Source of the DNA: Candidatus Woesearchaeota archaeon
GTDB taxonomy: Archaea; Nanobdellota; Nanobdellia; SCGC-AAA011-G17; UBA489
NCBI GenBank assembly: GCA_964390715.1
Contig: CAYMIM010000013.1
Span: 27,311-91,310 of the forward strand
Direction of reading: 5' to 3'
DNA: 64,000 nucleotides
The notes under the pieces were generated by a model. That model did no database searches. It was given only the letters and a program-made list of their open reading frames with translations, and was not told the DNA's origin. Shown in pieces: positions 7,691 to 45,017 of this stretch (its first letter is position 1; each line of letters begins with the position of its first letter). The position numbers and the translations under genes are program-made.

Positions 7691-7775
7691 AGTAATTTGT
7701 GATTTCTGTTGCTTTAAATAGATTCTCTTTTTTACGTAGAATCCTAATAAAAGGAAGATTTATATAGAAAAGAAA

Positions 7776-8243
7776 ATGAATAAATATATGCAGATAAAAA
7801 AAGCAATGGGTGTGTTAATTCTCTGTATATTTATTTCAGCCTGTTCAACAGGGCAAACAAAAACTAATGAGAATAAAAAAGTTGTCGTTGAAGATAACTC
7901 TTATTTTGTAGGTAAGTGGAAAGCAGAAAAAATATATGGTGTTGATCCAAGCGCTCAACAACTCGTCGAGGGTCAGTTAAGTGCATATCCTGATGGATTA
8001 TATATGGAATTTACAAAAGATGGAAAGGCATGTTCAATGTGGGACGGCGCTACCTGTACCGCCTATGGACAATCCTATCAAACAGAAGGAAACTTGTTGC
8101 TAATGAAACAAGAAGGTTTGACTGGACCTGAATTTAGATATATGTGGAAAAAAACAGGAGAAGCAAAATTAGAGTTAACTGCAGAATTTTTGATGGATAA
8201 CAAATGGACTACAGCAATAAAATATATGCTCGTTAAGGCATAA
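7776..8243 (+). CDS. Putative secreted lipoprotein (lipobox-like ISACS), function unknown
   Basis: N-terminal MNKYMQIKKAMGVLILCIFISACSTGQ signal/lipobox-like sequence. AT-rich gene. Confidence 0.45.
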   Translation: MNKYMQIKKAMGVLILCIFISACSTGQTKTNENKKVVVEDNSYFVGKWKAEKIYGVDPSAQQLVEGQLSAYPDGLYMEFTKDGKACSMWDGATCTAYGQSYQTEGNLLLMKQEGLTGPEFRYMWKKTGEAKLELTAEFLMDNKWTTAIKYMLVKA

Positions 8244-10698: not shown

Positions 10699-11409
10699 TT
10701 ATTTCCCATATCTTCGTTGTCGTTTCTGGAATTCATTAATGCAAGCGACAAAGTCTTTCTTTTCAAATTCAGGCCATAATGTATCGGGTAAGAAAATAAT
10801 TTCACTATAGATAGATTGCCAAGGCAAAAAGCCGCTTAAACGTGATTCAGATGTTCTAATGATTAAGTCTGGTTCATCTTGCATGTAGAGGTTTTCAGAG
10901 AACACTTGTTCATTAATGTCTTCAATTTTAAGTTTATTATCTTTAACTTGTTCGGCTATTTTCTTTGCTGCGTCAACAACTTCCGCTCGTCCACCATAGG
11001 CCATAGCGAAATTGACAACATATTGAGTGTGACTCTTAGTCAAATCCATTATTTTTTGCATGCGTTCCTGAATATCTTTGGGAAACATCCAAAGTCTTCC
11101 TATAAAATGGAAGCGAAGATTGCTCTCATGAATTTTAGGATCCGCGAGGACAGTGTCAAATTCCTTTCTGAAAAGATCCATTAAGTAGTTAAATTCATTT
11201 TTAGGTCTATCAAAATTTTCAACAGAAAACGCGTATAAAGTTAATTCTTTGATATCGTATTCCTTGCACCACTCAAAAAGATGTCTTAGTTTTTTTGCCC
11301 CCCACTCATGTCCTTTCCACGGTTTTAACATTAAGCGTTTAGCGAATCGTCTATTACCGTCAAGAATAATTCCTATATGGTGAGGCACGTTGTTGAGTGT
11401 TGGTTTCAT
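10699..11409 (-). CDS. uppS: Undecaprenyl/tritrans,polycis-polyprenyl diphosphate synthase (cis-prenyltransferase)
   Basis: HIGIILDGNRRFAKR...GHEWGAKKL...ELTLYAFSVENFDRPKNEFNYLMDLF matches UPPS conserved regions. Confidence 0.85.
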   Translation of the reverse strand: MKPTLNNVPHHIGIILDGNRRFAKRLMLKPWKGHEWGAKKLRHLFEWCKEYDIKELTLYAFSVENFDRPKNEFNYLMDLFRKEFDTVLADPKIHESNLRFHFIGRLWMFPKDIQERMQKIMDLTKSHTQYVVNFAMAYGGRAEVVDAAKKIAEQVKDNKLKIEDINEQVFSENLYMQDEPDLIIRTSESRLSGFLPWQSIYSEIIFLPDTLWPEFEKKDFVACINEFQKRQRRYGK

Positions 11410-19837: not shown

Positions 19838-21841
19838 TTAGTCTATTTTTCCACTACCAGTAATGGGGTAGCAACAGTTATTGACGTCGCATCCATATTT
19901 TTCTGGATCTCCACAATCGCTAGGCTGAGAACAGCTTTGCCCGCCAGTTTTACAAATAGGAGGTTTAGGATCTGGCTGACAGGAGCAACCGCTTGGACCA
20001 TTAGGTTTGCAAGTGTAGTTGGGTGAGCAAGCGCCGCCACAAACAAGCCCTGAACAATAAGGCAATGCTCTGCAACCGCTCGGAGTGATTGGTCCTGTTG
20101 TAGATCCTCCTGGGCCCCATCCTGGGAGAGCGGGTGGTAATGGCGGCACTACAGGTGCTGGATCGCCTGGTCCGCCGGGATAAGGTCCAACTGCTCTGCG
20201 AGCACTTCCACTACAAGTACAGTCTGCTAAACAGGTAGTTCCTGCGGGACAATAACCTACAGTACCAGGCTCACATTCTTCGAAAAAATCAACCCGACCA
20301 TTGCCACAGCTACTGCCACCTAAAGGTCGACAGTCACAGAAAGCGGTGCATTCTTTTCCAACAGGACAACCTGAAGGACTTTTTCCAGTATCACATTGCT
20401 CCCATCCTGTAGATGAAATTTTACCATCGCCACAATAATCAGTAAAAGTATAGCAGGTGCATCCTTTAGTGCATACTTTGCCAGTACCACAGCCACTAGA
20501 AAGAATAGGATCACCATTATTCGCGCCATCATCGCAAAATTCTGGACCCTCGATGTTACCATTGCCACAAAATGCGGGAGGAATACTGGGTGATGTGCAT
20601 TGACAAGTGAGATGACTACAGCGTTGTGGTGAAGTGCAAGCTCCAGGAGGAATAACTTGACCGTTTGCATCAAATTCACAATTTTCTGAACCTTCAATAC
20701 GACCATCGCCACAAGTACTGCCGATGCTAGGAGGTTCACAAACACCACCTTTAAGAAGATTACAAATATCGCCTAAATTGCATTCACTGTTTTTAGTGCA
20801 GGGTCTGCAGGCGCCAAAAATAGGGCTAACAATTTCTTTGTCGCAGATTTCATTGCCATAGTTGCATTCATTATTGCCACCACAAGGGCGACATTGTTTA
20901 ATGAGAGTATCACAGATGGGTTTTTTTGGATCTTGCGATTTGCATTCTGCATTGTTAATACAAAGACCAATACCTTCTCTACCACAACGGGAAGGTTGTG
21001 TAGAATCAATACACCATTCAGTAGGGTTGCAATCCTTAACGATCCTACCGTTACTATAATAGGGTGTTTTAGTTCCTGCTGGAGAGTCACAAGGTTCACA
21101 ATAATGAGAGAGTGTATTGCAAACCATGGCGGGATAATTACAATCTTTATTTGTTAGACATGATTTAAAAGGATCACTACACCGTCCGCCTAAGCATATT
21201 TGTCCACTAGTAGTACATTGATTATCTCTGGCGCAAGGAATACAGACACCATTGGCAATATCACAAAGACCCGTAGTTTTCTCGCAGTCTTCATTTTTAC
21301 TGCAGGAGCATTTGCATGCTTGTGGATGCTCGCGGGGGAAGCAGCCTAAAGAAGTTACAGAGCTGCCACAGGCAGATTTATCTTTGCCGTCGCATTGCTC
21401 AAAAGCTTCTCGTTGATTATTGCCACATTCATAAAGCAAAACATTGGTATCATTATTATAGAGTTGGACATAATGTAATCCTTCATTCAAAGGAAGAACA
21501 CCAACAACATCTGCGGGTACGTTCAGTGTCATGTCATTGCCAGCTAATTTGTAGCACAGCATGCCTTTATTACACCATCTTGTTGATCCGCCACTGCTTG
21601 GACCAACTTGTTGTTGAGTAACTCCGCTAGGGACGCGCATGACAACAACACTGGAAGTGCCAGAACCTAAATTATTGACTTGGGTAATCCCGACATTTAA
21701 CGCTTGTAAAGCGTCTTGTAATTCTGCCAAGCGATTGCTGTCAATGCGTTCTGTGGAGAAGAAAAGTAAGGGAATAATGACAACTAAGATAACACAAGTT
21801 AAGATCAAATAATCAAACGTAGATTGTGCTTGCTTCTGCAT
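19838..21841 (-). CDS. Large Cys-rich repeat surface protein with archaeal class III (type IV pilin-like) signal peptide; candidate pilus-associated adhesin
   Basis: Start placed at MQKQAQ/STFDYLILTCVILVVIIPLLFF (Q+1 and D+5, pilin-like, then a hydrophobic helix). About 600 aa of CxxC-rich repeats (CEPCDSP, CRPCGGNNEC, CRPCTKNSEC). Pro/Gly-rich linker GGPGDPAPVVPPLPPALPGWGPGG. The track's longer 686-aa ORF has an unlikely N-terminal extension. Confidence 0.6.
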   Translation of the reverse strand: MQKQAQSTFDYLILTCVILVVIIPLLFFSTERIDSNRLAELQDALQALNVGITQVNNLGSGTSSVVVMRVPSGVTQQQVGPSSGGSTRWCNKGMLCYKLAGNDMTLNVPADVVGVLPLNEGLHYVQLYNNDTNVLLYECGNNQREAFEQCDGKDKSACGSSVTSLGCFPREHPQACKCSCSKNEDCEKTTGLCDIANGVCIPCARDNQCTTSGQICLGGRCSDPFKSCLTNKDCNYPAMVCNTLSHYCEPCDSPAGTKTPYYSNGRIVKDCNPTEWCIDSTQPSRCGREGIGLCINNAECKSQDPKKPICDTLIKQCRPCGGNNECNYGNEICDKEIVSPIFGACRPCTKNSECNLGDICNLLKGGVCEPPSIGSTCGDGRIEGSENCEFDANGQVIPPGACTSPQRCSHLTCQCTSPSIPPAFCGNGNIEGPEFCDDGANNGDPILSSGCGTGKVCTKGCTCYTFTDYCGDGKISSTGWEQCDTGKSPSGCPVGKECTAFCDCRPLGGSSCGNGRVDFFEECEPGTVGYCPAGTTCLADCTCSGSARRAVGPYPGGPGDPAPVVPPLPPALPGWGPGGSTTGPITPSGCRALPYCSGLVCGGACSPNYTCKPNGPSGCSCQPDPKPPICKTGGQSCSQPSDCGDPEKYGCDVNNCCYPITGSGKID

Positions 21842-21924
21842 GATACTCTTTTCCTTAAGGCTTATTTTTTCAGGATGGTATAAATACTTTATGAACAACT
21901 CTCAAGGAATAACAAAAAGAAGCA

Positions 21925-21940: not shown

Positions 21941-22000
21941 GCAACGTCAAAAATTGTATCCATGTTCAAACAAAGTAAACGAATAAGAGGTGGTAAGAGA

Positions 22001-22486
22001 ATGGTGCAAAAAAGAGGACAAGCGGCCATGGAGTTCTTGATGACTTATGGCTGGGCGTTGTTAGTAGTTTTAATCGCGATTGGCGCTTTAGCGTTCTTCG
22101 GAGTATTGAATCCAAGTAGATTCTTGCCGAACTCCTGTACTTTAGCTCCAGGATTTAGTTGCAATGACTTCAGAGCAAGTGATGGCGATGATAATATCCT
22201 TGTTGTGATTCAAAATGGATTAGGTGACAATCTCAACTCAGTTACTTTAAAGTTATCTGGTAGTAACCCTGATTGTGGCGGTTCATCATCAACAACAGGA
22301 AGAGCATTTACACCAGGATCAACGACACTCAATGATGGTGCATCAACTCAATTTACCATGGCCTGTACTGCAGGTAACTTGGTTAAAGGAAATAAGTTGA
22401 AAGGAGACCTTCAAATTGATTATACTATCGGAACAGGTCTTGCACATAAAAAAATTGGTCAACTAGTTGTTGGAATTGAAGCGTAG
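22001..22486 (+). CDS. Archaeal type IV pilin-like protein (class III signal peptide)
   Basis: MVQKRG/QAAMEFLMTYGWALLVVLIAIGALAFFGVL: basic leader, Q+1, E+5, hydrophobic helix. The track's start at 21962 adds an unlikely 13-aa extension. Confidence 0.7.
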   Translation: MVQKRGQAAMEFLMTYGWALLVVLIAIGALAFFGVLNPSRFLPNSCTLAPGFSCNDFRASDGDDNILVVIQNGLGDNLNSVTLKLSGSNPDCGGSSSTTGRAFTPGSTTLNDGASTQFTMACTAGNLVKGNKLKGDLQIDYTIGTGLAHKKIGQLVVGIEA

Positions 22487-22525
22487 TCCTTCTTTTCTTT
22501 CTTTTTCTTTATTTTAATAAACTAT
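22487..22525 (+). terminator. T-rich tract after pilin gene 1 (archaeal oligo-T terminator candidate)
   Basis: GTCCTTCTTTTCTTTCTTTTTCTTTATTTT immediately after the stop codon. Confidence 0.3.
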
Positions 22526-22554
22526 AAAAAGAGTGTTCTTTATAAAAATTTCAC

Positions 22555-24396
22555 ATGAAAAAGAAAACAGAGATAATCCTTGTTATTCTATTATTGTTGC
22601 TTGCTACAGCATGGAGATTTATTTTTTGGCATAATGGCATTTTTGGTTCAGATGCTCTTTATCACTATAGTGTTGTAGAACAAGCACTTAAAGAAGGAAA
22701 ACTATCTAATGATAACCTATTGTCAGTGTGCTACGAAGGAATAACTACTGGACATCCTCAGGGGTATTATGTTGTGCCTTATTTTCTAGGAAAAATCGTG
22801 GGAGTTGATAATGCATTCATAATAGCTCCGATAATTCTAGGATTAATAACGCTTTTTTGTGCATACTTGCTCATTAAGTCAATATGGAATACTAAAGTTG
22901 CGCTGCTCACGCTTTTTTTTCTCGCGATTTCATTAGGACATATCTCTAAGTCATTTGCTTTTTCATGGAGGGGAGAAAATATAGTCTATCCGTTCATTCT
23001 TTTATCCTTATTCTGGATGCTAAAATCCTTTTCAAAAAAGGAAAAAAGCTCTGCCATCCTTGCTGGAATCATATCTGGTCTTACAGCATGGTTCTGGAAT
23101 GGATACCCCTTAGTGATGATTGTTTTCTTTTGCGCACTTTTTTTCTACATTAGTTGCCAGTACTTCAAAGCAGACATATTGAGGTTTAAAGAAGAGATAA
23201 ATTTAGCAACAATAAGTGTAGGAAGCCAAGCAGTCGTATTAATGTCAATTATCTACCTAACTGAGCAGTCAGGAAAAGCAGTCTTGTTTGGAAAAGAATA
23301 TTATCTTTGGGGTGTACTAATGAGTATACTTGCTCTTTGGGTTTTAAGAATAAGCAAGGTAAAAAAAACGAAAAAACCATTTATTGGTGTTGTAATCATA
23401 GGAGCAGGTATAGTTTTCCTTTTATGGAATAAAATAAGGACAATCGCACAAGGTTTTGGTTCAATAAAGCCAGAAATGCCCATTCTTGAGCTACAACAAA
23501 CATTGCCTCATCAATATTTTTTCGCATTTTACATACTATGCGTCACAAGTATTTTAGGTTTGTATTTTTTCTGTAAAGAATTCAATAATAAAAAAGCAAT
23601 TTTCGCAGGCTTATTAATGCCTAGTCTCTATTTAATAATCACTGCTAGTAGATATATTTATTTTGCGAGCATCCCCATAATCACATTGACAGCTATATTC
23701 TTAAACAATAAAAAAATTATAAGAAAGAAATTTGATATCTTTATTGTAATAACTTTTGCCTTAATGGCTATAATGATGATCTACTCGTTGTATGCGGTAC
23801 CAAGATATTTTTCAGAAAGTTTATTTATTGATACTCAAGAGCCTTATTTGTTTATAAAAGAGAATAGTGAGACGGATGCGTGCGTTGTTGAAATCTCTGG
23901 GCGTGGAGCAACTATTGAGGGATTGTCAAAACGATATTCGTATTTTGAACCAATAGGATTTTCTGAAGAAAGACATAGAAAAGTAGGATCCTTCCTTTTG
24001 GCGAATACTTCTGAGAATACGCTAGGGATCGATAATCTCTACATACTCCTTAATTATCGCGATTTTTCAAAATTAAGAGGGATGGCAAAAGCTGCTGAAA
24101 AGAATAATATTACTTTTTTCAGAATAAATGAAGGCATGAATGAAAAAGTGAATGAAACTAAAGTAAAAGAAGATTCTAATTTCATGAAATATATCTATGT
24201 AAATGAAAAAATGTTCATAAATGAAAGTGGCAAAGGATGTGTATATGTCTATTTAAGTGATTATTTTTATCTAAGTGATGAAATCTGTGAATCAAACATG
24301 TTTAAAATGATTACCAACCAAACTATGAAAAATTTCAAGAATGTTTATTTCAAAGATGGTTATGCTATCTACAAGTACGAAGTTAGTGCTTCTTAA
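22555..24396 (+). CDS. Polytopic GT-C-fold-like membrane glycosyltransferase (ArnT/PMT/oligosaccharyltransferase-like), about 400-aa TM domain plus about 200-aa soluble C-terminal domain
   Basis: More than 10 hydrophobic helices. Early loop FGSDALYHYSV is an acidic D-containing motif reminiscent of GT-C first-loop motifs. No WWDYG motif, so not a canonical AglB. Confidence 0.4.
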   Translation: MKKKTEIILVILLLLLATAWRFIFWHNGIFGSDALYHYSVVEQALKEGKLSNDNLLSVCYEGITTGHPQGYYVVPYFLGKIVGVDNAFIIAPIILGLITLFCAYLLIKSIWNTKVALLTLFFLAISLGHISKSFAFSWRGENIVYPFILLSLFWMLKSFSKKEKSSAILAGIISGLTAWFWNGYPLVMIVFFCALFFYISCQYFKADILRFKEEINLATISVGSQAVVLMSIIYLTEQSGKAVLFGKEYYLWGVLMSILALWVLRISKVKKTKKPFIGVVIIGAGIVFLLWNKIRTIAQGFGSIKPEMPILELQQTLPHQYFFAFYILCVTSILGLYFFCKEFNNKKAIFAGLLMPSLYLIITASRYIYFASIPIITLTAIFLNNKKIIRKKFDIFIVITFALMAIMMIYSLYAVPRYFSESLFIDTQEPYLFIKENSETDACVVEISGRGATIEGLSKRYSYFEPIGFSEERHRKVGSFLLANTSENTLGIDNLYILLNYRDFSKLRGMAKAAEKNNITFFRINEGMNEKVNETKVKEDSNFMKYIYVNEKMFINESGKGCVYVYLSDYFYLSDEICESNMFKMITNQTMKNFKNVYFKDGYAIYKYEVSAS

Positions 24397-25723
24397 AGAA
24401 GATAAGTTTAATGGTTAACAAAAGAATCTTGATATCAAAGAACAAAGACCAGTTCTCAATATAAAAAACATCGTGTTTAATACGTTCATCTAGAGAAGTG
24501 TTACCGTAATAGCCATTGACTTGCGCCCAGCCAGTCATGCCTCCTTTGACAGCATGTCGTTCAAGATAGTGAGGTATTTTATCTTTAAACTGGTTGATAA
24601 AGAAAGGTCGTTCTGGTCTAGGTCCTACAAGAGACATATGCCCTAAAAAGACGTTGAAAAGTTGCGGTAGTTCATCTAAATTAGTTCTTCGTAAAAATCC
24701 GCCAAGAGGAATAATTCTAGAATCATGATTGTCCGCCCACTTTGGACCAGTTTGGTGTTCAGCGTCCGGCATCATAGTACGAAATTTATAAAGAATAAAA
24801 GGCTTAGAATTATAAGAAACTCTTTCCTGTTTGTAGAAAACGAATCCTTTCGAAGTTAATTTGATAAGAAAAGCAATCACAATAAATAAAGGTAAAGAAA
24901 GTAAGATAAAAAATAAAGAAAAAAAGATATCTACTAGCCGTTTCAAAACAGGATTAAATCCTTTCAAGTTTGTTTCTTTAATATGTAAAACTGAAAGAGG
25001 GCCTATTTGCTCAGGAAGTGATCTCTTGGTGACAATATCAACAATACTGGGCACTACCTTATAAGAAATATCATGTCCTCCTTTCTCCATAATATAAAGT
25101 ATCTTGGATTGATCTTCTTTAGGCAAATGCATAATAATTTCATCGACTACATGAGTAGATAAGAGTTGACTTAATTGTTTCAGAGAAGAAGGATTGAGAA
25201 AATGAGCTAATCGATAACCATGTTCTCTGGTAATTTTTTCTTGGAAAAACTTTCTATACATAGGATCACAAATAAGCAAAGCAGTAGTTAAAAGATAGCC
25301 CCGACGGTTAAGATATGATCTCAAAGAGTTCAAAAGAAGTCTTCCAAAGCTAATAAAAAGAAAGCTGAAAATAAAACTTACAGCTATAAAGATCCTTGAA
25401 TAAGAAACTTCACGTTGAAGAAAAGTAAAAGTGACAAAAATAAAGAAAACAAAGAGTGTAGACTTGAAAATAGTATAATATTCCTCAAATATTTTTTCCT
25501 TTTTATACAGATGGAGTAAATTAAAAATAATAATATAGATAACTACAATAAAAACTAAGCTAAAAAGATAAGTAATAAGCGAAGGAATTCCTTTAGTCAC
25601 ATCTAAAATACCAGAATAGAATCTAAACCAGAAAGAAAAGAGATAAGCGGTTGCAATAAAGAAAATATCTATCAATACAGTAAGAAAGATGATAAACGAT
25701 GAATTTTTTTTAAACATGCTCAT
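24383..25723 (-). CDS. Polyprenyl-phosphate sugar phosphotransferase, WbaP/bacterial sugar transferase family (initiating phosphoglycosyltransferase)
   Basis: C-terminal domain KPFILYKFRTM...LDELPQLFNVFLGHMSLVGPRPERPFF...GMTGWAQVNG matches the family signature. N-terminal TM helices. Confidence 0.8.
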   Translation of the reverse strand: MSMFKKNSSFIIFLTVLIDIFFIATAYLFSFWFRFYSGILDVTKGIPSLITYLFSLVFIVVIYIIIFNLLHLYKKEKIFEEYYTIFKSTLFVFFIFVTFTFLQREVSYSRIFIAVSFIFSFLFISFGRLLLNSLRSYLNRRGYLLTTALLICDPMYRKFFQEKITREHGYRLAHFLNPSSLKQLSQLLSTHVVDEIIMHLPKEDQSKILYIMEKGGHDISYKVVPSIVDIVTKRSLPEQIGPLSVLHIKETNLKGFNPVLKRLVDIFFSLFFILLSLPLFIVIAFLIKLTSKGFVFYKQERVSYNSKPFILYKFRTMMPDAEHQTGPKWADNHDSRIIPLGGFLRRTNLDELPQLFNVFLGHMSLVGPRPERPFFINQFKDKIPHYLERHAVKGGMTGWAQVNGYYGNTSLDERIKHDVFYIENWSLFFDIKILLLTIKLIFFKKH

Positions 25724-26487
25724 AGTAATCTAAACCCATATTTCTTATAATAAATAAACATGCTCTTTAGGTGGTAAAAAAAGGTTTTGCTAAAGAGATT
25801 ATAGCTTGCTCGTTGATAAACATGGGTAGCTATAGCGGAAGGATAGTATACTATTCTCCAGCCAGCTTTTTTCGCTCTTTGGCATAAGTCTATATCTTCA
25901 AAATAAAGGAAAAAATGATGATCTAAAAGCCCTATCTGATCAAACGCTGTGCGACGAATAAAAAGAAATGCGCCAATAGACCAATCGACGTCTTGAGTTT
26001 TATCATGATCAATATCCAACATAAGATAATTTCTTACTATTCTAGATCTAGGGAAAAAAGGTTGAATAAAATGTGCTAAAAAAACTGGATATCGTCTACA
26101 AGAAGGCTGTAAAAGATTATTAGGATAGAGGAGTTTGCAAGAAAGAACACCAACAGAGGTCTGCTTCTGCATATAAGTAAACACTTTTTGCAGGGTATCT
26201 TTTTGTACATATACATCAGGGTTTAAAAGTAAAATATAATCTCCTCGAGATTGTCGTATAGCTATATTGCATGCAGAAGAAAAACCAACATTTTTTATAG
26301 TTCTAATCAGAGTAACAGGATAACGTTGAAGAATAGCTAAAGTAGTATCTTTGGAGTTATTATCCACAACAATAATTTCTAGATCTTTGAAAGATTGTTG
26401 TTGAAGAGCCTCAAGACAAGAACCAATATACTTTTCAGAGTTATAAGTAACAATAACAACTGAAATAGTTAGTTTAGGTTTTGGCAT
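25720..26487 (-). CDS. Glycosyltransferase family 2
   Basis: ISVVIVTYNSEKYIGSCLEAL...IIVVDNNSKD...DxD-type region. Confidence 0.7.
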   Translation of the reverse strand: MPKPKLTISVVIVTYNSEKYIGSCLEALQQQSFKDLEIIVVDNNSKDTTLAILQRYPVTLIRTIKNVGFSSACNIAIRQSRGDYILLLNPDVYVQKDTLQKVFTYMQKQTSVGVLSCKLLYPNNLLQPSCRRYPVFLAHFIQPFFPRSRIVRNYLMLDIDHDKTQDVDWSIGAFLFIRRTAFDQIGLLDHHFFLYFEDIDLCQRAKKAGWRIVYYPSAIATHVYQRASYNLFSKTFFYHLKSMFIYYKKYGFRLL

Positions 26488-26490
26488 AGT

Positions 26491-27294
26491 TTAGGAAAGC
26501 TTGTTAGCGGCAAATTTCTTCATCTGTGCTCTAAATCGTTTTGTTATAAAGGGTCGTAACAATAATCTATAACTTTTATACAAAGGATAAAGCAAAATAT
26601 AGGACGGTCTAGTAAAGAGATGTGGATGATTCTTTTTAATTCTAGAATAGAGATAAGCATGCTTCTGAAGAGCGTTATGAATCATAGTTTTGCCATGTTT
26701 TCGATAGAAAAATAAAGGTTCTGGAATGACAAAGGATTGCCAATTGCGCTCTAAAAGAGAGATGTAAAAGTCCCAATCCTCATAGCCATAAATCATGTTC
26801 TGATTATACCCTATAGTTTGGTTATATGCTTTTCTTCTAATAACAGAAGACACAACTGCTGAATTGTAGAAACGCATGCTACTCAAAGTTGCAGTTCCAG
26901 TGACTCCAATCCCCTGTACATCACCAAAATACTGAATATAGGGGTAAACAAAACCAATAGTAGCAGAAGATTCCAAAATGTTGACAGCTTTTTCAATATA
27001 CGTAGAATCTATGCAATCATCAGCATCTAAAGGAAGGAAATATTTTCCACGAGAGCGTCGAATGCCATTGTTTCGTGCTGAAGCTAGTCCTTGATTATCT
27101 TGATGAATCACAGTAATGTTCTTGTGGCGAATACTGCCAAGCACTTTTTTCGTATTTGTGTCAATTGATCCATCATTGACAACAATAATTTCAATAGGCT
27201 TGTAAGTAGAAGATAAAACACTCTGAAGAGTTTCCTGAATATAGTTACCATAATTATAACAAGGAACAATAACACTCACTAAAGGTAAAGTCAT
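26491..27294 (-). CDS. Glycosyltransferase family 2
   Basis: VSVIVPCYNYGNYIQETLQSVLSST...IIVVNDGSID...LDADD. Confidence 0.7.
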   Translation of the reverse strand: MTLPLVSVIVPCYNYGNYIQETLQSVLSSTYKPIEIIVVNDGSIDTNTKKVLGSIRHKNITVIHQDNQGLASARNNGIRRSRGKYFLPLDADDCIDSTYIEKAVNILESSATIGFVYPYIQYFGDVQGIGVTGTATLSSMRFYNSAVVSSVIRRKAYNQTIGYNQNMIYGYEDWDFYISLLERNWQSFVIPEPLFFYRKHGKTMIHNALQKHAYLYSRIKKNHPHLFTRPSYILLYPLYKSYRLLLRPFITKRFRAQMKKFAANKLS

Positions 27295-28328
27295 AATTTC
27301 ATCCTCCGGAAAAGTGCATTAAATCGTTTTTCATAAGTATGATCTCGTAAAGTTCTGGTATAAGCTGCTTTCGCTATAGCTATTCTTTCATCATCATGGT
27401 TAAGATAATAGTTTATTTTTTCTAAAAGATCTGGGATAGTAGTAAAAACAACAATTTCTTTATTAGGAATATAATAATCTTCTAAATTATCAGCAGAATT
27501 AGTTAATAAAAAACTACGAGTTCCTGGAATCTCAAAATTACGACCTTTTATCTGGTCCTGTGACAGAAAGAAAGTTCTGAAGGTATTAAGTATTTCTCTA
27601 GGAGGTTTAATATAAGGCTTATTTCTTTTAAAAAAAAGACGAAGAAAGTTTTTATTGGTTGATACATTAGTTAAATTAAGATTGATTTTGCTTTGAGAAA
27701 AACAATCTAGCATAGCTTCTTGTGTCAATCTACCTTGTGGCCAGCCAGTTCCCCAGCAAGTAATGTCCACGCCTTTATTTTTTAGTGTTTGAATAATCTG
27801 TTTTCGATCTCCATGAGATTGTCCTACAAAAGAAACAGGGTATTTTTTCTTTGCTGAAGAAGGTTTATAAAAAAAATGATTGCATGCCCACTGTGTAGCA
27901 AGTACTTGGTTGTAACCAATGCGATGATAAAGAGGTAAAGCTTGTGAGTAAGTTGTTGATACCCAGTGAAAATCTGGTGCATAATATTGAGAATAAGTAT
28001 AAAAACGCCAATGATCATCCGCAAACCAATTAAAAGTAATTGCACCGCTATGTGCGGTGATATATTGAATAGTAGCGTGTGTAATTTCATCTGTGAATAA
28101 AAAAAAGAAGCAAAGATCAGGTTGTATTTCAGAAACTTTCTTGAGTAATAAAGCATTCATAGCTTCCTTGCCAATTTTATGCATTATTTCATCAAACGGA
28201 AAATAGATAATTTCATGTTTTTTATTATTCATATGAACTAAAGAATGATAAAAATTGTAATGTTCAAAACTGTATCCCCTGCCCATCTTTCCATAATCGT
28301 ATTTCATCGCTATGTAAAGAATTTTCAT
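27291..28328 (-). CDS. Glycosyltransferase, GT-B (GT1/GT4, CgeB-like) C-terminal domain
   Basis: C-terminal NFEIPGTRSFLLTNSADNLEDYY...EIVVF...LLEKINYYLNHDDERIAIAKAAYTRTLRDHTYEKR resembles GT4/CgeB donor-binding domains. Confidence 0.5.
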   Translation of the reverse strand: MKILYIAMKYDYGKMGRGYSFEHYNFYHSLVHMNNKKHEIIYFPFDEIMHKIGKEAMNALLLKKVSEIQPDLCFFFLFTDEITHATIQYITAHSGAITFNWFADDHWRFYTYSQYYAPDFHWVSTTYSQALPLYHRIGYNQVLATQWACNHFFYKPSSAKKKYPVSFVGQSHGDRKQIIQTLKNKGVDITCWGTGWPQGRLTQEAMLDCFSQSKINLNLTNVSTNKNFLRLFFKRNKPYIKPPREILNTFRTFFLSQDQIKGRNFEIPGTRSFLLTNSADNLEDYYIPNKEIVVFTTIPDLLEKINYYLNHDDERIAIAKAAYTRTLRDHTYEKRFNALFRRMKL

Positions 28329-28586
28329 AGGATAATATGTTTAGGCGTCCTTTTTATTTTTATGGGCTGGGCTATTTATAAGGAACGCTAGCCTTTTATA
28401 GACTTATTATAAGTTTATGGGATGCTATCCAGAGTAAAGAATAAAATAATTTCTCAGATAGACAGAGTAAAGCAAAGGCAAACTAACAAAAAAAGATTGG
28501 CCTTCTTTAAAAAAATTAAAAAATATAATAAATAAGAAAAGAAAAGATCTAGCTTTCACAGTTAAAGATGATATTATCCGAATACA

Positions 28587-29285
28587 TCAAATATGGGCTC
28601 GCCAGATAAAGAAAGTATCATGAAGATTTAGTTGAACATTCTTAAAACCAGATTGCAATAAAAGTTCCTTAAAGTAAGTTGGTTGATATTCTCGTATATG
28701 AAAGGGAGAATCGCTGAATTTTTCAAGAGAAGTATTATTGGTTGGTGTACAACCAATAAAAAATCCTTCTTTTTTCAAATGTTTTTTTATGTAATGCAAT
28801 AAAGTAACAAAATTCTGTTCACTAATATGTTCAACAAATTCAGTGCTAGAAATAACATCAAAAAGACCAAAATTATCTGATAAAATGGTAATATTCTTTT
28901 GGTGATAGGTTATTTTTTTGTTGTGAGAAAATCGAAATTCAGCTGGAGATATCTTATCTACAGAAATAACACTCTGGACAGTATTTTGGTTGGCAATCTG
29001 ATGAGTAAGATAGCCGAATCCACAGCCAATATCAAGAACTCTTCCATGAACAAGAGAAAGAATAGGTTGTGAATAAGCTTCAAAATACTCTTTTTCTGCA
29101 TCTGTAGTAGTCGGATCATATCGTTCAGTTGGTGGAATAAAAAAAGCATGGATTCGAATATAAAGAGGAGAAATAACAGGTAGACGAGTCATCTTTTTAG
29201 TAAAAGAAAATAAAAAAGGAAGTTTAACCTTCACATAATTTTTTGTAGAGGAGAAAAGGTTCATAAGTTTTGTTCCTTTAGCCAC
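28587..29285 (-). CDS. Class I SAM-dependent methyltransferase
   Basis: VLDIGCGFGYLT (motif I GxGxG). Confidence 0.65.
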   Translation of the reverse strand: MAKGTKLMNLFSSTKNYVKVKLPFLFSFTKKMTRLPVISPLYIRIHAFFIPPTERYDPTTTDAEKEYFEAYSQPILSLVHGRVLDIGCGFGYLTHQIANQNTVQSVISVDKISPAEFRFSHNKKITYHQKNITILSDNFGLFDVISSTEFVEHISEQNFVTLLHYIKKHLKKEGFFIGCTPTNNTSLEKFSDSPFHIREYQPTYFKELLLQSGFKNVQLNLHDTFFIWRAHI

Positions 29286-29929
29286 ACGTCTAGGATTTCT
29301 TTTTCCTTACCTATTAAAGAAAGGGATAAAATTTCTTTGGCAACAGCTTTTTCATTGATAGGTTTAAAGGATTTCTTAGCTGTCACAAGAATATTATCTA
29401 AAAAGTCTACAGCACTAGGAAGAACTTTATTTGCATGTTTAGAAATTCTGCTTGGAATATATTTGCTAGTATAATTGGTAAATAATTTAACTTGAATATC
29501 TTCAAACCCGAGTTTATCAAGAATATATCTAAATTTTTTTTCTCCCCAATAATCTAAATGAAATGCCCAAGGAGACTCTTGTGAACCAAAAATATGTCGT
29601 GCTATTTTAAATTGTGTTTTGAGGTCTGCTGTAGCAAATTTCTTGACAGTAGTTTCAAAATCTGGAGTTTCAAGCACTAACTTTCCACCAGGTTTTAACC
29701 ATCTACGCCAGCGAAATAAGTGTTTTAAGATCTCTTGTCGTGAAAAATGTTCAAGAAGGTGATGTGTTCGCACTTCATCAACGCTATTGTCTGCATATGC
29801 AAGCTCTCGAATGTCTTTATACACATCGGCTTTTGCCTTCATAACTGTTTGACCTTCTGTAGGGAGATCAATATTGACATAGCCAGCTAAATAACTCTCT
29901 CCACAACCTAAATGTAATTTTACTTCCAT
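29261..29929 (-). CDS. Class I SAM-dependent methyltransferase
   Basis: HLGCGESYLAGYVNIDL (motif I-like), LKPGGKLVLETPD (post-motif II). Confidence 0.55.
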   Translation of the reverse strand: MEVKLHLGCGESYLAGYVNIDLPTEGQTVMKAKADVYKDIRELAYADNSVDEVRTHHLLEHFSRQEILKHLFRWRRWLKPGGKLVLETPDFETTVKKFATADLKTQFKIARHIFGSQESPWAFHLDYWGEKKFRYILDKLGFEDIQVKLFTNYTSKYIPSRISKHANKVLPSAVDFLDNILVTAKKSFKPINEKAVAKEILSLSLIGKEKEILDVWLKEQNL

Positions 29930-30609
29930 GTTTTTATTTCACCTTTTTCCAAATACAAAATTCTATCGCTGAATTTTTTAACAGTAGCAATATCATGACT
30001 TACAAAAAGAATAGTCTTCTGTTGTTTTTTGAAATTTCTAAAGACTTCATAACATTTTTTCTGGAACACTTCATCTCCAACTGCTAAAACTTCATCCACT
30101 AAGAGAATGTCAGCATCAACTTGACTAGCTATCGAAAAGCCAAGACGAGCAACCATGCCTGAACTGAGATTTTTAAGTTTGGTATCAACAAATTTTCTAA
30201 GGTCAGAAAAGGAAATAATAGTGTCATATCGTCTCTCTATCTCTTGATGAGATAAGCCTAGCAAAGAACCATAGAGAAATATATTCTCTTTGACTGTTAA
30301 TTCTCCTTGAAATCCAACTCCTAATTCTAAAAAAGGACTTAAAGTGCCATGAACATGCACATAGCCTTGAGTAGGTTGTAATACTTTAGCAATAATTTTG
30401 AGAAAAGTGCTCTTGCCTGCTCCATTTGGACCAACAATACCAATAAATTCTCCCTTCTTGATGGATAAACTAACATCTTTCAAAGCATAAAAACGTTCAT
30501 AAGAATGGCTGAGATTAAAGAGACCTAGAATATAAGATTTAACCCCATACTTTTTATCGTGAGGAATGTTAAAAATTTTCGTAACATGCTCTAAAGAAAT
30601 AATATTCAT
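29920..30609 (-). CDS. ABC transporter ATP-binding protein, polysaccharide/O-antigen-type exporter (Wzt/KpsT/TagH-like)
   Basis: Walker A GIVGPNGAGKST, signature LSSGM, Walker B ILLVDE. Start overlaps the upstream methyltransferase. Confidence 0.8.
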   Translation of the reverse strand: MNIISLEHVTKIFNIPHDKKYGVKSYILGLFNLSHSYERFYALKDVSLSIKKGEFIGIVGPNGAGKSTFLKIIAKVLQPTQGYVHVHGTLSPFLELGVGFQGELTVKENIFLYGSLLGLSHQEIERRYDTIISFSDLRKFVDTKLKNLSSGMVARLGFSIASQVDADILLVDEVLAVGDEVFQKKCYEVFRNFKKQQKTILFVSHDIATVKKFSDRILYLEKGEIKTWK

Positions 30610-31364
30610 TAGACTAACTCCGCAAAATAGACTGCCATTTTTTTATAGATAAAGAGTCCTATGAAAAAAACTAGTAAAGAATAACCAAGTGATAACACAT
30701 AGAAAGAAAAATTAAAGTGGTTGGAAAGAAGAAGGTCTCTCAGTCCTTCAATAATCAATGCAAACGGATTAAGATACATAAAAGAAAGGAATCGCAGAGG
30801 AATAATATTGACAGGATAGACAATAGGAGTCAGCCAGAAAAATGATTGAAGAAGTATCCTCCAAATATGCTGTACATCTGGAAAGCGAATTGTTAACGCG
30901 CCAACAATATAGGAAATACCCAAAGTAAGTAAAAATAAATTAAAAAGGAAAAAGATCATCAAGAAAGAATGGAAAGAAAAAGTAAAGCCAGTAAAGAAAT
31001 AAAAGATAAAGAATACCAAAAAATTAAGAACCAATCCTAAAAAAGTTGTTATGTTAGATGCAAAAACTATAACTGTTCTGGGAAAATAGATTTTTTTCAT
31101 AATGCTAGATTTAACGGAGAGTGAAGTAATAGCATTTAAGGTAGCTTCATTAAAAAATCCCCAGAGAATAATGCCTAAAAATAAGAATAATGGATAATGT
31201 TCTACCTTGAACTTGACAAAGTAGCTAAAAACAACATATAACACCGTAAAAGTCAATAAAGGATTTAACAAAGACCATAAGTATCCTAGGGCAGATCCCT
31301 GATATTTAAGTTTAAAGTCGGTCCATGCGAAAATCTTTACAAGATTTAAGTAATATCTATCCAT
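30609..31364 (-). CDS. ABC-2 type transporter permease (Wzm/KpsM-like)
   Basis: 6-TM 251-aa protein immediately upstream of, and overlapping, the ATPase gene. Confidence 0.7.
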   Translation of the reverse strand: MDRYYLNLVKIFAWTDFKLKYQGSALGYLWSLLNPLLTFTVLYVVFSYFVKFKVEHYPLFLFLGIILWGFFNEATLNAITSLSVKSSIMKKIYFPRTVIVFASNITTFLGLVLNFLVFFIFYFFTGFTFSFHSFLMIFFLFNLFLLTLGISYIVGALTIRFPDVQHIWRILLQSFFWLTPIVYPVNIIPLRFLSFMYLNPFALIIEGLRDLLLSNHFNFSFYVLSLGYSLLVFFIGLFIYKKMAVYFAELV

Positions 31365-31463
31365 AAAATGGTTTTAAATCTGAAGGTTATATAACTTTTG
31401 TCATTCTCGAGTGGAAGAATATCTTTAAAAAGACAGAATTACTCCTAATCCGAGGTGAAAAGA

Positions 31464-32075
31464 GTGCAAAAAAGAGGACAAGCGGCCATGGAGTTCTTGA
31501 TGACTTATGGTTGGGCGTTGTTAGTAGTCTTAATCGCGATTGGCGCGTTAGCGTTCTTCGGAGTATTGAATCCAAGTAGATTCTTGCCACAACAATGTGT
31601 TCTAGGTCCAGGTCTTGCTTGCGCAGACTTCAAAGTAACATCTGTAGACCAAAAAGTACAAATCACTGTACAAAACGGCTTAGGTGAAGATTTAAAACAA
31701 TTCCAAATCTATGTTGATAATGTAGGCGGTAAGCACAAATGTGGAGGCTATTATGGCTACGTTGCATTTTATGTTAATTCTGCAAGTAGAAGTCCGCCTC
31801 TCCGAGACGGCAGTGCAGAGAAACTAATAAATTTATTTAATGGAAATGGTATTCAATGTGGAGGCGGTGTTAACAATTGTTGTACAGATTTCAAAAAACC
31901 TCCTTTGGGATTATATCCTTATGATCTATGCCCTTCAATAACGTCCTGCTATGCGGGAGAGCCACAATGGAAGGTAGGAGAAAAATTCAGTGAAGATATT
32001 GTAATCACTTATCAAACAGAAGGATCACAAATTCTCCATCAGCGAGTAGGTAGATTGACCACGCAAATTGAATAG
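31464..32075 (+). CDS. Archaeal type IV pilin-like protein, paralog of 22001..22486 with near-identical signal peptide/N-terminal helix; alternative GTG start at 31455
   Basis: (MKR)VQKRG/QAAMEFLMTYGWALLVVLIAIGALAFFGVLNPSRFLP, then a divergent Cys-containing C-terminal domain. TATA-like TCTTTAAAAAG about 30 nt upstream. Confidence 0.7.
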   Translation: MQKRGQAAMEFLMTYGWALLVVLIAIGALAFFGVLNPSRFLPQQCVLGPGLACADFKVTSVDQKVQITVQNGLGEDLKQFQIYVDNVGGKHKCGGYYGYVAFYVNSASRSPPLRDGSAEKLINLFNGNGIQCGGGVNNCCTDFKKPPLGLYPYDLCPSITSCYAGEPQWKVGEKFSEDIVITYQTEGSQILHQRVGRLTTQIE

Positions 32076-41119: not shown

Positions 41120-41242
41120 CTCCACGTAGCTCAATGGTAGAGCGGTCGGCTGTAGATGTCGTGAATCGAGATTCCACACGGAAACTGTGAAAATTCACTA
41201 GCCGATCCCGACAGGTTCCTGGTTCGAGTCCGGGCGTGGAGA
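41120..41242 (+). tRNA. tRNA-Tyr (anticodon GTA) with an approximately 51-nt intron 3' of the anticodon (about 41156..41206)
   Basis: Acceptor CTCCACG/CGTGGAG plus discriminator A. D-arm GCTC-AATGGTA-GAGC. Anticodon stem GTCGG/CCGAC interrupted after CTGTAG. T-arm CCTGG-TTCGAGT-CCGGG. Confidence 0.65.
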
Positions 41243-43421: not shown

Positions 43422-44546
43422 ATGATAAAAATGAGGAATATTGATTGGGTGAACACAAGTTTCATTGTTTCTTATCACTTACTATTATTGAGTTTATTGC
43501 CGATATATCTTGTCTTTAACACACCAAGTCTAGGTTTAATAGTAGGAACAGTTATACTCAGCATACTTATCAGTTTCAGCGTTACTGCGGGGTACCATCG
43601 ATTATATGCGCATCGAGCTTACGATATCAACAAACTAGGAGAATTTTTTATTCTAGCGTTTGGCACATTAGCTATAGAGAATAGTGTTCTGCAATGGTCG
43701 CGTGATCATCGCATGCATCATCGGTATGTCGACACAGAAAAAGATCCTTATTCAATCAAGGAAGGATTTTGGCACGCGCATATGCTCTGGGTTTTAAAGA
43801 AAAATGATGAAAGAACAAGTGATTATAGTGTAGTTCCAGATCTACTTTCCGATAAAGCGGTTATGTTTCAGCACAAGTATTATGCTATATTGGTAATCCT
43901 CGGAAACTTGGCAGTCATTGGTTTATTCAGTTGGCTCTTCAAAGACTTGTTCGGAGTGATAGTAATAGCTTGTTTAGCTAGAGTGTTCCTAATCCATCAT
44001 ATGACATGGTTCATTAATTCCCTCGCGCACACGTTTGGTAGCAAGCCTTATTCAAACGAGCATTCTGCCGTAAACAATGCTGTAATCGCTTTTTTAACAT
44101 TTGGAGAAGGATATCACAATTATCACCACACATTCCCGTCTGATTATAGAAACGGAGTTCGATGGTATCAATTTGATCCAACAAAAATAGTTATCTGGTC
44201 TTTAGCAAAAATAGGAATCGCGAAAAATCTAAAGAAAATTGAATTGCCTTTGATCAAAAAGAGAATGATCGTGGAAGATGAAAGAAAAATTTTAGAAAAA
44301 ATAAGAGCTGGCAGTCAGAAAAAATGGAAAGAGATGGAAGCAAGAGTAAAAAATACCGCGGAAAGTCTCACAACAAAACTTTCACAAGCATATACATTAT
44401 GGTTACAATATAAAACAGGAAAAACAAAGCAAGAAAAAATGGAAAGAAAACTACAGCTCAAAGTATTGAAAAAAAGCATTAGACAAGAGTATAAAATGTG
44501 GTTGCTCTTATGTAATCAAGTGATCATAGGAAAATCATCTCGATAA
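43422..44546 (+). CDS. Membrane fatty acid desaturase, stearoyl-CoA (delta-9 acyl-CoA/acyl-lipid) desaturase family
   Basis: Three His boxes: HRLYAHRAY, HRMHHRYVDTEKDPYS, HNYHHTFP, with four TM segments. Textbook SCD-family arrangement. Confidence 0.8.
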   Translation: MIKMRNIDWVNTSFIVSYHLLLLSLLPIYLVFNTPSLGLIVGTVILSILISFSVTAGYHRLYAHRAYDINKLGEFFILAFGTLAIENSVLQWSRDHRMHHRYVDTEKDPYSIKEGFWHAHMLWVLKKNDERTSDYSVVPDLLSDKAVMFQHKYYAILVILGNLAVIGLFSWLFKDLFGVIVIACLARVFLIHHMTWFINSLAHTFGSKPYSNEHSAVNNAVIAFLTFGEGYHNYHHTFPSDYRNGVRWYQFDPTKIVIWSLAKIGIAKNLKKIELPLIKKRMIVEDERKILEKIRAGSQKKWKEMEARVKNTAESLTTKLSQAYTLWLQYKTGKTKQEKMERKLQLKVLKKSIRQEYKMWLLLCNQVIIGKSSR

Positions 44547-44814: not shown

Positions 44815-44919
44815 GCCCTAGTAGTCTAGTGGCTATGATACGGCCCTGTCGTGGGCGCTCAAGATCAAAATCTGGCCCAGAGAAAGGCCGTGGCGCGGGT
44901 TCGATTCCCGCCTGGGGCG
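44815..44919 (+). tRNA. tRNA, probably Asp (anticodon GTC), with an approximately 33-nt intron or non-canonical insertion
   Basis: Acceptor GCCCTAG/CTGGGGC (one G-U) plus discriminator G. T-arm GCGGG-TTCGATT-CCCGC. Anticodon stem CGGCC(44841..44845)/GGCCG(44886..44890) with loop CTGTCG then intron. D-arm imperfect. Confidence 0.5.
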
Positions 44920-44923
44920 TTTT

Positions 44924-45017
44924 GGGCCGGTAGCTCAGCCTGGCTAGAGCACTTGGCTTTTAAACAAGCCAAAGCAAAGACACCAAGGGGTCGGGGGTTC
45001 AAATCCCCTCCGGTCCG
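44924..45017 (+). tRNA. tRNA-Lys (anticodon TTT) with an approximately 19-nt intron at 37/38 (about 44963..44981)
   Basis: Acceptor GGGCCGG/CCGGTCC plus G. D-arm GCTC-AGCCTGGCTA-GAGC. Anticodon stem CTTGG/CCAAG with loop CTTTTA[intron]A. T-arm GGGGG-TTCAAAT-CCCCT. Confidence 0.6.

Follow-up and report, generated by a model that had tools for sequence, protein, structure and literature searches.

The closest published analogue of the locus described here is the slg system of Geobacillus and Paenibacillus (PMC2943079), for which we compared the clusters of Geobacillus stearothermophilus NRS 2004/3a and Paenibacillus alvei (WsaP/WsfP, Wzm/Wzt, WsaC-F, the WsaE methyltransferase, and WsaB/WsfB). 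In the slg pathway, the glycan is finished with a methyl cap and transferred en bloc to a surface protein by a cluster-encoded oligosaccharyl:protein transferase of the Wzy_C family (PMC2943079). Here, we analyze a 64,000-nucleotide (nt) window of a Candidatus Woesearchaeota contig (CAYMIM010000013.1), in which a block of genes for a phosphoglycosyltransferase (PGT), glycosyltransferases (GTs), methyltransferases (MTs), and a Wzm/Wzt exporter adjoins the gene for a predicted STT3/AglB-fold protein. Known Agl pathways start with AglH (PNPT) or AglJ/AglK-type GT2 enzymes. To our knowledge, these pathways have no assigned ABC-2 exporter or monotopic PGT, and we know of no flippase firmly assigned for lipid-linked glycans across the archaeal membrane.

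With moderate confidence, we read the locus as a cassette-like, ABC-transporter-dependent glycan pathway that would feed a sequon-independent STT3-family transferase, the neighboring pilin-like protein being its likely acceptor. Coordinates are positions in the window, that is, the entire 64,000-nt stretch; L-numbers denote related loci on other contigs. Gene families were assigned with Pfam and NCBIfam profiles (bit scores compared with cut-offs). The features of the locus are as follows:

21962-22486, plus strand: type-IV-pilin-like protein with a class III signal peptide, candidate acceptor (N-terminal signal, conserved position)
22555-24396, plus strand: STT3/AglB-fold GT-C protein lacking WWDXG, 613 amino acids (aa), proposed terminal glycan transferase (AlphaFold2 [AF2] model, Foldseek)
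24383-25723, minus strand: large monotopic PGT, class A, WcaJ/EpsB type, predicted initiating enzyme (PF02397, TIGR03025)
25720-26487, minus strand: GT2a glycosyltransferase, adjoining the PGT gene (PF00535, 111 bits)
26491-27294, minus strand: GT2b glycosyltransferase (PF00535, 112 bits)
27291-28328, minus strand: glycosyltransferase with a GT1-like, CgeB-type C-terminal domain, GT1_2 (PF13524 Glyco_trans_1_2, 105.6 bits)
28329-28586, minus strand: AT-rich spacer of 258 nt with TATA-like boxes (sequence inspection)
28587-29285, minus strand: MTa, class I S-adenosylmethionine (SAM) methyltransferase (Methyltransf_23, 52 bits)
29261-29929, minus strand: MTb, class I SAM methyltransferase (Methyltransf_11, 32.6 bits)
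29920-30609, minus strand: Wzt, ABC ATPase (PF00005 ABC_tran; best NCBIfam models TagH and galactan Wzt)
30609-31364, minus strand: Wzm, ABC-2 permease of the glycan exporter, first gene of the cluster (PF01061 ABC2_membrane, 67 bits)
31455-32075, plus strand: further pilin-like paralog, oriented divergently from wzm (right-hand repeat copy at its 5' end)
19838-21898, minus strand: large Cys-rich surface protein, 686 aa, with a pilin-type class III signal (translation)

Organization of the locus and the conserved gene trio

The block 24383-31364 consists of eight co-oriented open reading frames (ORFs) on the minus strand. Its inventory had been proposed from the letters and translations alone (hereafter, the sequence-only reading), and domain annotation with Pfam and NCBIfam bore it out: Wzm, Wzt, two MTs, three GTs, and an initiating PGT. 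This set corresponds to a PGT-primed, Wzm/Wzt-dependent glycan pathway, in agreement with the proposal of a bacterial-type ABC pathway in an archaeon. The further proposal of a single operon of overlapping genes holds only in part. Five of the seven junctions overlap (by 1, 10, 25, 4, and 4 nt) and another is a 3-nt gap, but the 258-nt spacer with its TATA-like boxes, the sole large gap, divides the cluster into two sub-blocks, so that a single transcription unit is not supported. This spacer falls inside a variable segment specific to the window, to which MTa, MTb, and the GT1-like gene also belong, and is possibly an internal promoter. A scan of the block for sigma-70 promoters and intrinsic terminators (37 sites compared with 41.6 expected) was uninformative, as would be anticipated in an archaeal genome.

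The true unit is wider than the block and extends over about 21962-32075. The STT3-like gene is convergent with the PGT gene, with a 14-nt overlap of the 3' ends, and the pilin-like gene 21962-22486 sits 68 nt upstream of the STT3-like gene. This trio was found in every contig of the inner family on which the flank exists, namely the window, L001-L005, L084-L092, L094-L098, L102, L104, and L106; the inner family comprises STT3-like proteins retrieved at E <= 1e-60 in an exhaustive profile search (about 30 clusters at 50% identity), and the metagenome scan contributed 17 loci. On long contigs, the gene order is pilin-like, STT3-like, convergent PGT, GTs, with or without an MT, Wzt, Wzm, second pilin-like, DUF192, ABC transporter, and RNase J, and the far side of the cassette is bordered by FttA and a proteasome subunit. 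This single fixed chromosomal site was found in groundwater, soil, and Tara ocean contigs. The L002 locus has a different outer context and still contains all three members of the trio, which shows, to judge from gene order, that the trio moves as a unit. The sequence-only reading had set the pathway apart from AglB-centered glycosylation. This distinction fails in that an STT3/AglB-fold protein is encoded by a gene that overlaps that of the PGT and has a PGT partner in every inner-family locus with the flank present, but survives in that the protein lacks WWDXG and is non-canonical.

Fold and motifs of the STT3-like protein

The STT3-like protein scores below the cut-offs of both STT3 models, Pfam PF02516 (16.5 bits compared with 24.5) and NCBIfam archaeo_STT3 TIGR04154 (20.3 compared with 450), and gives a weak match to PMT_2. 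A HMMER search of the PDB finds STT3, with 'CVVEISGRGATIEG' aligned to the STT3 segment 'IMSWWDYGYQIGG' and 'ISGRGATIEG' opposite 'SWWDYGYQIGG', such that WWDXG is replaced by SGRGA. For the AF2 model (pLDDT 78.8, pTM 0.78), the top 19 Foldseek matches are STT3A/B, yeast Stt3, PglB, and AfAglB (E-values from 1e-15 to 6e-10, TM-scores of 0.61-0.68), with DPY19, ALG9, ArnT, Emb, and PMT far below; the C-terminal domain additionally matches the soluble domains of PglB and PfAglB. The protein is thus modeled as an STT3/AglB/PglB-type GT-C fold with a multi-transmembrane domain followed by a C-terminal extracytoplasmic domain. A PMT/ArnT-type GT-C identity was considered for this 613-aa protein and rejected, given the weak PMT_2 match and the low Foldseek ranks of ArnT and PMT.

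In canonical oligosaccharyltransferases (OSTs), DXD and TIXE form the catalytic, metal-binding site, and WWDYG together with DK/MI forms the pocket for the Ser/Thr of the sequon (PMC8342417); the importance of WWDXG for AglB is stated in PMC11407970. In the family alignment, D33 in external loop 1 (EL1; GxDxxxHY), R139-G140-(E/D)141 in EL2, and E312 in EL5 are invariant or conserved, and D33, (E/D)141, and E312 align with the equivalent positions of WWD-bearing relatives. The C-terminal extracellular domain is likewise retained, with invariant Cys and other residues. No member of the inner family contains a WWD motif. The next relatives beyond the inner family are short AglBs of similar size that bear WWDxG, including an STT3-domain protein of Thermococcus barophilus. 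A joint alignment shows that EL1, the EL2 motif 'YRG[DE]', and the Glu of the EL5 motif 'TIxEL' are common to the WWD-less and WWD-bearing groups, and that the WWD motif decays stepwise, from tWWDyGS through xWDxx or WRDxx and PDWGG to SGRGA. The DSVxGQ block, which comes after the WWD motif in the relatives, is also gone across the inner family, and no DK/MI motif is identifiable in the sequence alignment. With the catalytic acids conserved and both WWDXG and DSVxGQ gone, the family appears to have kept the donor side of the enzyme and lost the side that reads the sequon. The protein is thus a non-canonical relative of AglB, its canonical membership failing on WWDXG.

Loss of the peptide Ser/Thr pocket motif with retention of the donor and metal residues could also be expected of a release or recycling enzyme, which would hydrolyze the lipid-PP-glycan (PP, diphosphate) or transfer it to water or a non-protein acceptor, freeing exopolysaccharide and regenerating the carrier. 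An archaeon has no lipid A-core for ligation, and OSTs intrinsically hydrolyze lipid-linked oligosaccharides in the absence of a bound acceptor peptide, with liberation of the glycan (PMC8342417). We nevertheless consider such a role rather unlikely because the C-terminal extracellular domain is maintained with its invariant residues, and because the gene immediately upstream is invariably that of the pilin-like protein, even where the chromosomal surroundings differ.

Identity and replacement of the phosphoglycosyltransferase

The PGT matches Pfam PF02397 (Bac_transf) with 222.5 bits (cut-off 27; residues 261-442 on profile positions 1-178 of 179) and TIGR03025 with 403.8 bits (cut-off 295.55; residues 17-445 on model positions 1-442). 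Its architecture is complete, with an N-terminal transmembrane bundle, a Rossmann-like domain, and a catalytic domain, and it aligns to WbaP (8t53) over residues 13-442. The best PDB sequence match of the catalytic domain is PglC, and the Asp-Glu dyad 'NLDELPQLFNV' and the PRP motif 'VGPRPERP', both aligned to PglC 8g1n, are invariant in the archaeal clade. These features place the protein, as far as profiles and motifs can, in the large (Lg-PGT) subclass of the monotopic PGT superfamily. The earlier label "WbaP-like" is adequate at the superfamily level but not below it, because the protein misses the equivalog cut-offs for WbaP (TIGR03022, 219.9 compared with 403; PRK15204 [NF011751], 91 compared with 907) and scores higher, although again below the cut-off, with the WcaJ model (TIGR03023, 373 compared with 410.75).

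Three close relatives of the PGT (49-65% identical, one labeled Woesearchaeota) form with it a four-member Woesearchaeota clade. Outside this clade, the nearest class A relatives are bacterial WcaJ-type enzymes with 33-42% identity, which also account for 78 of the 80 best loci among 185,579 species genomes, so the bacterial affinity expected by the sequence-only reading was recovered. The PGTs of the related loci fall into two classes, A (window, L001, L002, and L004; 47-71% identical) and B (L084, L086, and L088; 45-50%), with only 28-33% identity between them. Class B lies in a broad archaeal gradient (names assigned to Nanoarchaeota and Woesearchaeota, from 86% down to 39%), with bacteria appearing only at 32-36%. 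In a neighbor-joining (NJ) tree (Kimura distances) with a bacterial sample chosen by similarity to class A, both classes were recovered in 100/100 replicates and their union in 39/100, so that the tree is compatible with a single as well as a double bacterial origin. Most simply read, these comparisons point to an old archaeal locus whose resident PGT was later displaced, in the lineage of the window, by one of bacterial type.

Two observations concern PGT genes in other loci. In L067, L040, and L073 (Acidoferrum, Myxococcales, and Deltaproteobacteria), a WcaJ-type PGT has Wzt and Wzm nearby (45-49% and 24-29% identical to those of the window, respectively), and combinations of PGT with Wzm/Wzt thus exist in candidate donor phyla. 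In L089 (4441-5791), the PGT beside the STT3-like gene is apparently divided between a Bac_transf fragment of 130 aa and an ORF of 294 aa, which could reflect pseudogenization or an assembly frameshift.

Base composition, site, and age of the cassette

The block is AT-richer than the flanking genes, as had been noticed from the sequence alone: its G+C content (GC) is 0.321 compared with 0.403 +/- 0.013 in equal-length windows outside the block (z = -6.4), and GC at third codon positions (GC3) is 0.19-0.31 in the cluster genes compared with 0.41-0.51 in housekeeping genes. The trough spans 22555-31364, reaching 1.8 kb past the left boundary of 24383 assigned earlier and taking in a ninth gene, that of the STT3-like protein. 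L001 and L004 show the same trough at the corresponding locus. Low GC as a mark of recent transfer is not borne out because the cassette is syntenic, occupies the same chromosomal site, and is equally AT-rich in several related genomes. For the same reasons, the cassette as a whole is, on comparative evidence, old in the lineage, with turnover affecting the interior including the PGT.

Comparison of the window with L001 gives 75-92% identity for the flanking genes and 55-69% for the framework genes; the middle segment of MT and GT genes is replaced. Between the window and L084, identity falls from 92% for FttA through 70% for Wzt, 65% for Wzm, and 51% for the STT3-like protein to 28% for the PGT. 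Judging by these values, the framework (pilin-like genes, STT3-like gene, Wzm, and Wzt) is fixed and the interior (GTs, MTs, and PGT) appears to be exchanged between lineages in the manner of O-antigen loci.

An island recently acquired from bacteria, or contaminating or chimeric sequence in the assembly, would account for the strong GC and GC3 deviation and for the presence of PF02397, which is overwhelmingly bacterial, as is the nearest class A outgroup. Either explanation is extremely improbable, however: the cassette recurs at the same chromosomal position, flanked by archaeal core genes, on several independent long contigs (groundwater, soil, and marine), related contigs show the same GC trough, and divergence of the framework genes roughly parallels that of the hosts. 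We rejected both on the synteny across related contigs.

The host is clearly an archaeon (Woesearchaeota, DPANN), and the window carries the archaeal markers split RpoB, RpoA'/A'' and aEF2 with inteins, aEF1A, FttA, and Mre11/Rad50. The inteins in RpoA'' and aEF2 (51152-53755 and 55540-59217) each bear a LAGLIDADG homing endonuclease, and a separate GC dip to 0.314 at 56001-57000 is located inside the span of the EF2 intein. The three tRNA genes (41120-41242, 44815-44919, and 44924-45017) are 94-123 nt long, with room for introns; ARAGORN called one of them (tRNA-Lys-UUU).

Exporter, glycosyltransferases, and methyltransferases

The nearest structures to Wzm and Wzt are the O-antigen Wzm-Wzt and TagGH/TarGH transporters. 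Wzm matches the NCBIfam models for galactan Wzm/RfbD and KpsM below their cut-offs and is 54-69% identical among the window, L001, L004, L084, and L086. Wzt is a 229-aa protein consisting of the nucleotide-binding domain (NBD) only, and its orthologs in related loci are of similar length (225-227 aa). Its best PDB matches, the NBD of Aquifex aeolicus Wzt (6amx and 7k2t; full protein 404 aa) and TagH/TarH, cover Wzt residues 36-225 only, and the alignment with the Aquifex protein stops at residue ~220 of the NBD; with the structure match confined to the NBD, the C-terminal carbohydrate-binding domain is absent. The missing domain points to a cap-independent mode of export. E. coli O8/O9a has WbdD and the Wzt carbohydrate-binding domain, whereas Klebsiella O2a has neither, and the transporter of the window resembles the cap-independent class.

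The interior GTs are conserved to different degrees. GT2a is semi-conserved, with orthologs in L001, L004, and L088 (51-56% identical); GT2b is 58% identical to its L001 ortholog and has only a weak GT2 match (24%) in L004; GT1_2 has no relative in any locus compared. The two MTs are single-domain class I enzymes of 222-232 aa that had been described as twins; at 23% identity (E = 5e-7), they are not, and recent duplication was rejected on the same value. MTa shows only partial similarity (33-34%) to the MTs of L001 and L084, and MTb has no ortholog in any other archaeal locus compared. The number of MT genes varies from two (window and L004) to one (L001 and L084) to none (L086/L087), and the MTs are non-orthologous between loci. 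In L004, one of the two MT genes (7549-8181, minus strand) is located on the opposite strand within the cluster, which fits insertion or replacement in a variable segment.

These data bear on the claim of the sequence-only reading that a methyl cap ends chain growth. In its full form, this claim amounts to a self-contained bacterial-type ABC polysaccharide pathway, O-antigen- or capsule-like, in which a methyl cap stops growth and licenses export and the STT3-like gene has no functional connection. All the expected components (Wzm, Wzt, PGT, GTs, and MTs) are indeed present, an MT gene directly follows wzt in four of the five loci with that stretch on the contig, and methyl caps have bacterial precedents in slg and O8/O9a (PMC2943079). 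Nonetheless, termination by a methyl cap is unsupported because Wzt lacks the cap-reading domain, domain scans of the window found no WbdD-like terminator (kinase/methyltransferase with a coiled-coil ruler), and the MTs are single-domain, optional, and non-orthologous. The same scans found no Wzx and no Wzy_C/WaaL ligase in the window, and the STT3-like gene, which this explanation leaves aside, overlaps the PGT gene and accompanies a PGT wherever the flank is available in the inner family. We therefore judge a self-contained pathway of this kind to be unlikely.

Pilin-like proteins, flanking repeats, and neighboring genes

The proteins flanking the cassette are predicted to be type-IV-pilin-like, with a class III signal; Pfam gave no match for them. 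They share the signal 'KRG|QAAMEFLMTYGWALLVVL...' and conserved Cys residues, the upstream copy having in addition an S/T-rich middle. In the upstream protein, an invariant 'GQAAMEFLMTYGWALLVVL...' N-terminus with Glu at +5 is followed by four conserved Cys and a variable S/T-rich middle, with no N-X-S/T. Across 11 related pilin-like proteins, the class III signal 'KRG|QAAMEFLMTYGWALLVVLIAIGALAFFG' is invariant and consists of a leader with positive charge, a cleavage site of the G/A type, and a hydrophobic helix bearing Glu at +5. Nine of the 11 lack N-X-S/T, and the total of two sequons compared with about 17 expected is a weak, suggestive signal.

The paucity of sequons matters for another alternative, a divergent AglB that still links glycans to Asn through a different or relaxed sequon and is supplied through an unusual bacterial-type route of assembly and export. 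The whole-protein STT3/AglB fold, the conserved catalytic carboxylates, and the graded sequence continuity with WWD-bearing short AglBs are all in line with such an enzyme, and archaeal pilins are known AglB substrates (PMC5131992). We consider this alternative quite unlikely, given that the entire inner family lacks WWDXG and the DSVxGQ block, that the Pfam STT3 score remains below threshold, and that the co-encoded pilin-like proteins are essentially free of N-X-S/T.

The low-GC cassette is bracketed by a direct repeat of 182 nt with 86% identity (21997-22178 and 31457-31638, spacing 9460 nt), the copies of which are the 5' ends of the two pilin-like genes. These repeats may serve as recombination anchors for cassette exchange. 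Beyond the upstream pilin-like gene, the extremely Cys-rich protein 19838-21898 matches no Pfam family. Its first ~300 residues are conserved at 56-63% identity in L001 and L004, and where this protein has Cys-rich repeats, the L001 and L084 counterparts have PKD domains. The protein could be a pilus-tip adhesin and is also a possible alternative glycan acceptor.

About 11 kb from the cluster, the window encodes a cis-prenyltransferase of the undecaprenyl-diphosphate synthase family (10699-11409, minus strand; PF01255, 242 bits). Cis-prenyltransferases make the polyprenyl or dolichyl carrier that such a pathway would need. Another bacterial-type lipid gene encodes a fatty-acid desaturase family protein (43422-44546, plus strand; PF00487). 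At 952-3068 (minus strand), a SMODS-associated NUDIX protein (PF18167) is followed by a 484-aa protein with a weak match to APH-type kinases; this segment, with a GC of 0.35-0.365, may be a defense-related island.

Proposed pathway

In the pathway that we favor, the large monotopic PGT, identified by family and motifs, would place a hexose-1-phosphate on polyprenyl phosphate at the cytoplasmic face, the sugar and the lipid both being presumed. Two GT2 enzymes and one GT1-like enzyme would then lengthen the chain and two SAM MTs decorate it, as their families suggest. Wzm-Wzt, lacking the carbohydrate-binding domain, would export the finished lipid-PP-glycan, probably in a cap-independent manner. 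The STT3-fold protein would accept the exported lipid-PP-glycan and transfer it to what is probably a non-N-X-S/T acceptor, because the metal and donor residues are kept and the Ser/Thr pocket of WWDXG is lost. The most probable acceptor is the pilin-like protein encoded 68 nt upstream, modified through a putative non-canonical linkage, in view of the loss of the sequon pocket and the constant presence of a sequon-free pilin-like gene directly upstream. Cassette exchange would perhaps be aided by the direct repeats at the pilin 5' ends. The product of a PGT, a lipid-PP-sugar, is the type of donor used by PglB/STT3, which counts in favor of this pathway.

Several observations weigh on the other side. 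AF2 confidence is low exactly at residues 450-461, the former WWD loop. Among the outer WWD-less relatives (26-28% identical), L099, L100, and L103 have neither pilin nor PGT neighbors; in the fourth, L101, a PGT is located ~2 kb away. The sequon depletion is significant for none of the pilin-like proteins (P of 0.1-0.3 per protein), which are moreover related to each other. We infer the acceptor solely from conserved adjacency and motif loss, and the loss of WWDXG could mean that protein transfer was lost altogether. A bacterial-type PGT would also have to accept an archaeal dolichol-type carrier. Finally, no canonical AglB was found in the window, the part of the source genome covered here.

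Implications

The locus suggests that a bacterial-type assembly and export line has been joined to a degenerate archaeal-type OST, possibly an undescribed way of decorating archaeal surfaces. A more specific and decidedly tentative proposal is that the WWD-less STT3-family protein is a sequon-independent, possibly O-linking OST for DPANN pilin-like proteins, supplied by the PGT and Wzm/Wzt, and that the glycan "serotype" is swapped by cassette exchange. If the sequon-independent reading is true, this enzyme would be the first of the STT3 fold to act independently of the N-X-S/T sequon, Archaea would have a first candidate enzyme for protein glycosylation that is not N-linked, and the locus would supply a defined exporter of lipid-linked glycan in this domain. 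An ABC-2 exporter genomically tied to an STT3-family transferase makes archaeal glycan export testable, and the compact module of nine to ten genes is clonable. The locus also raises the question of the fate of the STT3/AglB scaffold after the loss of WWDXG, be it new acceptor chemistry, O-linkage, or glycan release. In genome-reduced, host-dependent DPANN archaea, an O-antigen-like locus (fixed site, low GC, and an exchangeable interior including the PGT) would be a means of surface diversification, and this behavior points to selection by hosts, viruses, or grazers. The natural mixing of bacterial- and archaeal-type glycosylation parts is relevant to glycoengineering.

Comparison with known systems

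In the literature that we covered, which is incomplete and leaves novelty unproven, we found no description of a WWD-less STT3 family or of an archaeal module combining PGT, Wzm/Wzt, and STT3. The ABC-dependent O-antigen systems (E. coli O8/O9a and Klebsiella O2a) resemble the locus in the Wzm/Wzt export of a glycan completed in the cytoplasm and in the variable low-GC cassette at a fixed locus, and the best structure match of Wzt is the Aquifex O-antigen Wzt. Unlike in these systems, the predicted initiating enzyme is a monotopic PGT rather than WecA, and there is neither WaaL nor lipid A-core. The domain-less Wzt is like that of the cap-independent Klebsiella O2a system and not like the methyl/phosphate cap-dependent type.

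The arrangement of a pilin gene followed by a dedicated membrane glycosyltransferase recalls, by analogy only, the Pseudomonas aeruginosa pairs pilA-tfpO (PilO) and pilA-tfpW. The P. aeruginosa pilin glycosyltransferases use lipid-linked surface-glycan precursors, and TfpO belongs to the Wzy_C family. TfpW is an unrelated GT-C arabinosyltransferase, in contrast to the STT3 fold and the archaeal host found here. Compared with the short AglBs (AglB-S) of Thermococcales and Archaeoglobus, the STT3-like protein has the same fold and size class and shares EL1 GxDxxxH, EL2 YRG(D/E), and a TIxE-type Glu in EL5, but differs from archaeal AglB in the lack of WWDXG. The Campylobacter jejuni Pgl system combines the same three protein superfamilies, a monotopic PGT of PF02397 (PglC), an ABC exporter (PglK), and an STT3-family transferase (PglB). 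In the locus described here, however, the PGT is of the large type, with four transmembrane helices and a Rossmann-like domain, a Wzm/Wzt ABC-2 channel takes the place of PglK, and the transferase lacks WWDYG, so that the D/E-X-N-X-S/T logic cannot apply.

The slg system remains, as an analogy, the nearest counterpart. It likewise has a WbaP-type PGT together with Wzm/Wzt where WecA would be expected, centrally located variable GTs, O-methylation, overlapping ORFs, and a GC below the genome average (PMC2943079), and L084 carries a WsaF_N-type GT. In contrast to slg, the Wzt of the window lacks the C-terminal domain, rml and other nucleotide-sugar genes are missing, and the MTs are optional. 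The locus differs from slg further in its archaeal host, in having a pilin-like candidate acceptor in place of an S-layer protein, and in encoding an STT3-fold GT-C protein where slg has the Wzy_C transferase (WsaB/WsfB).

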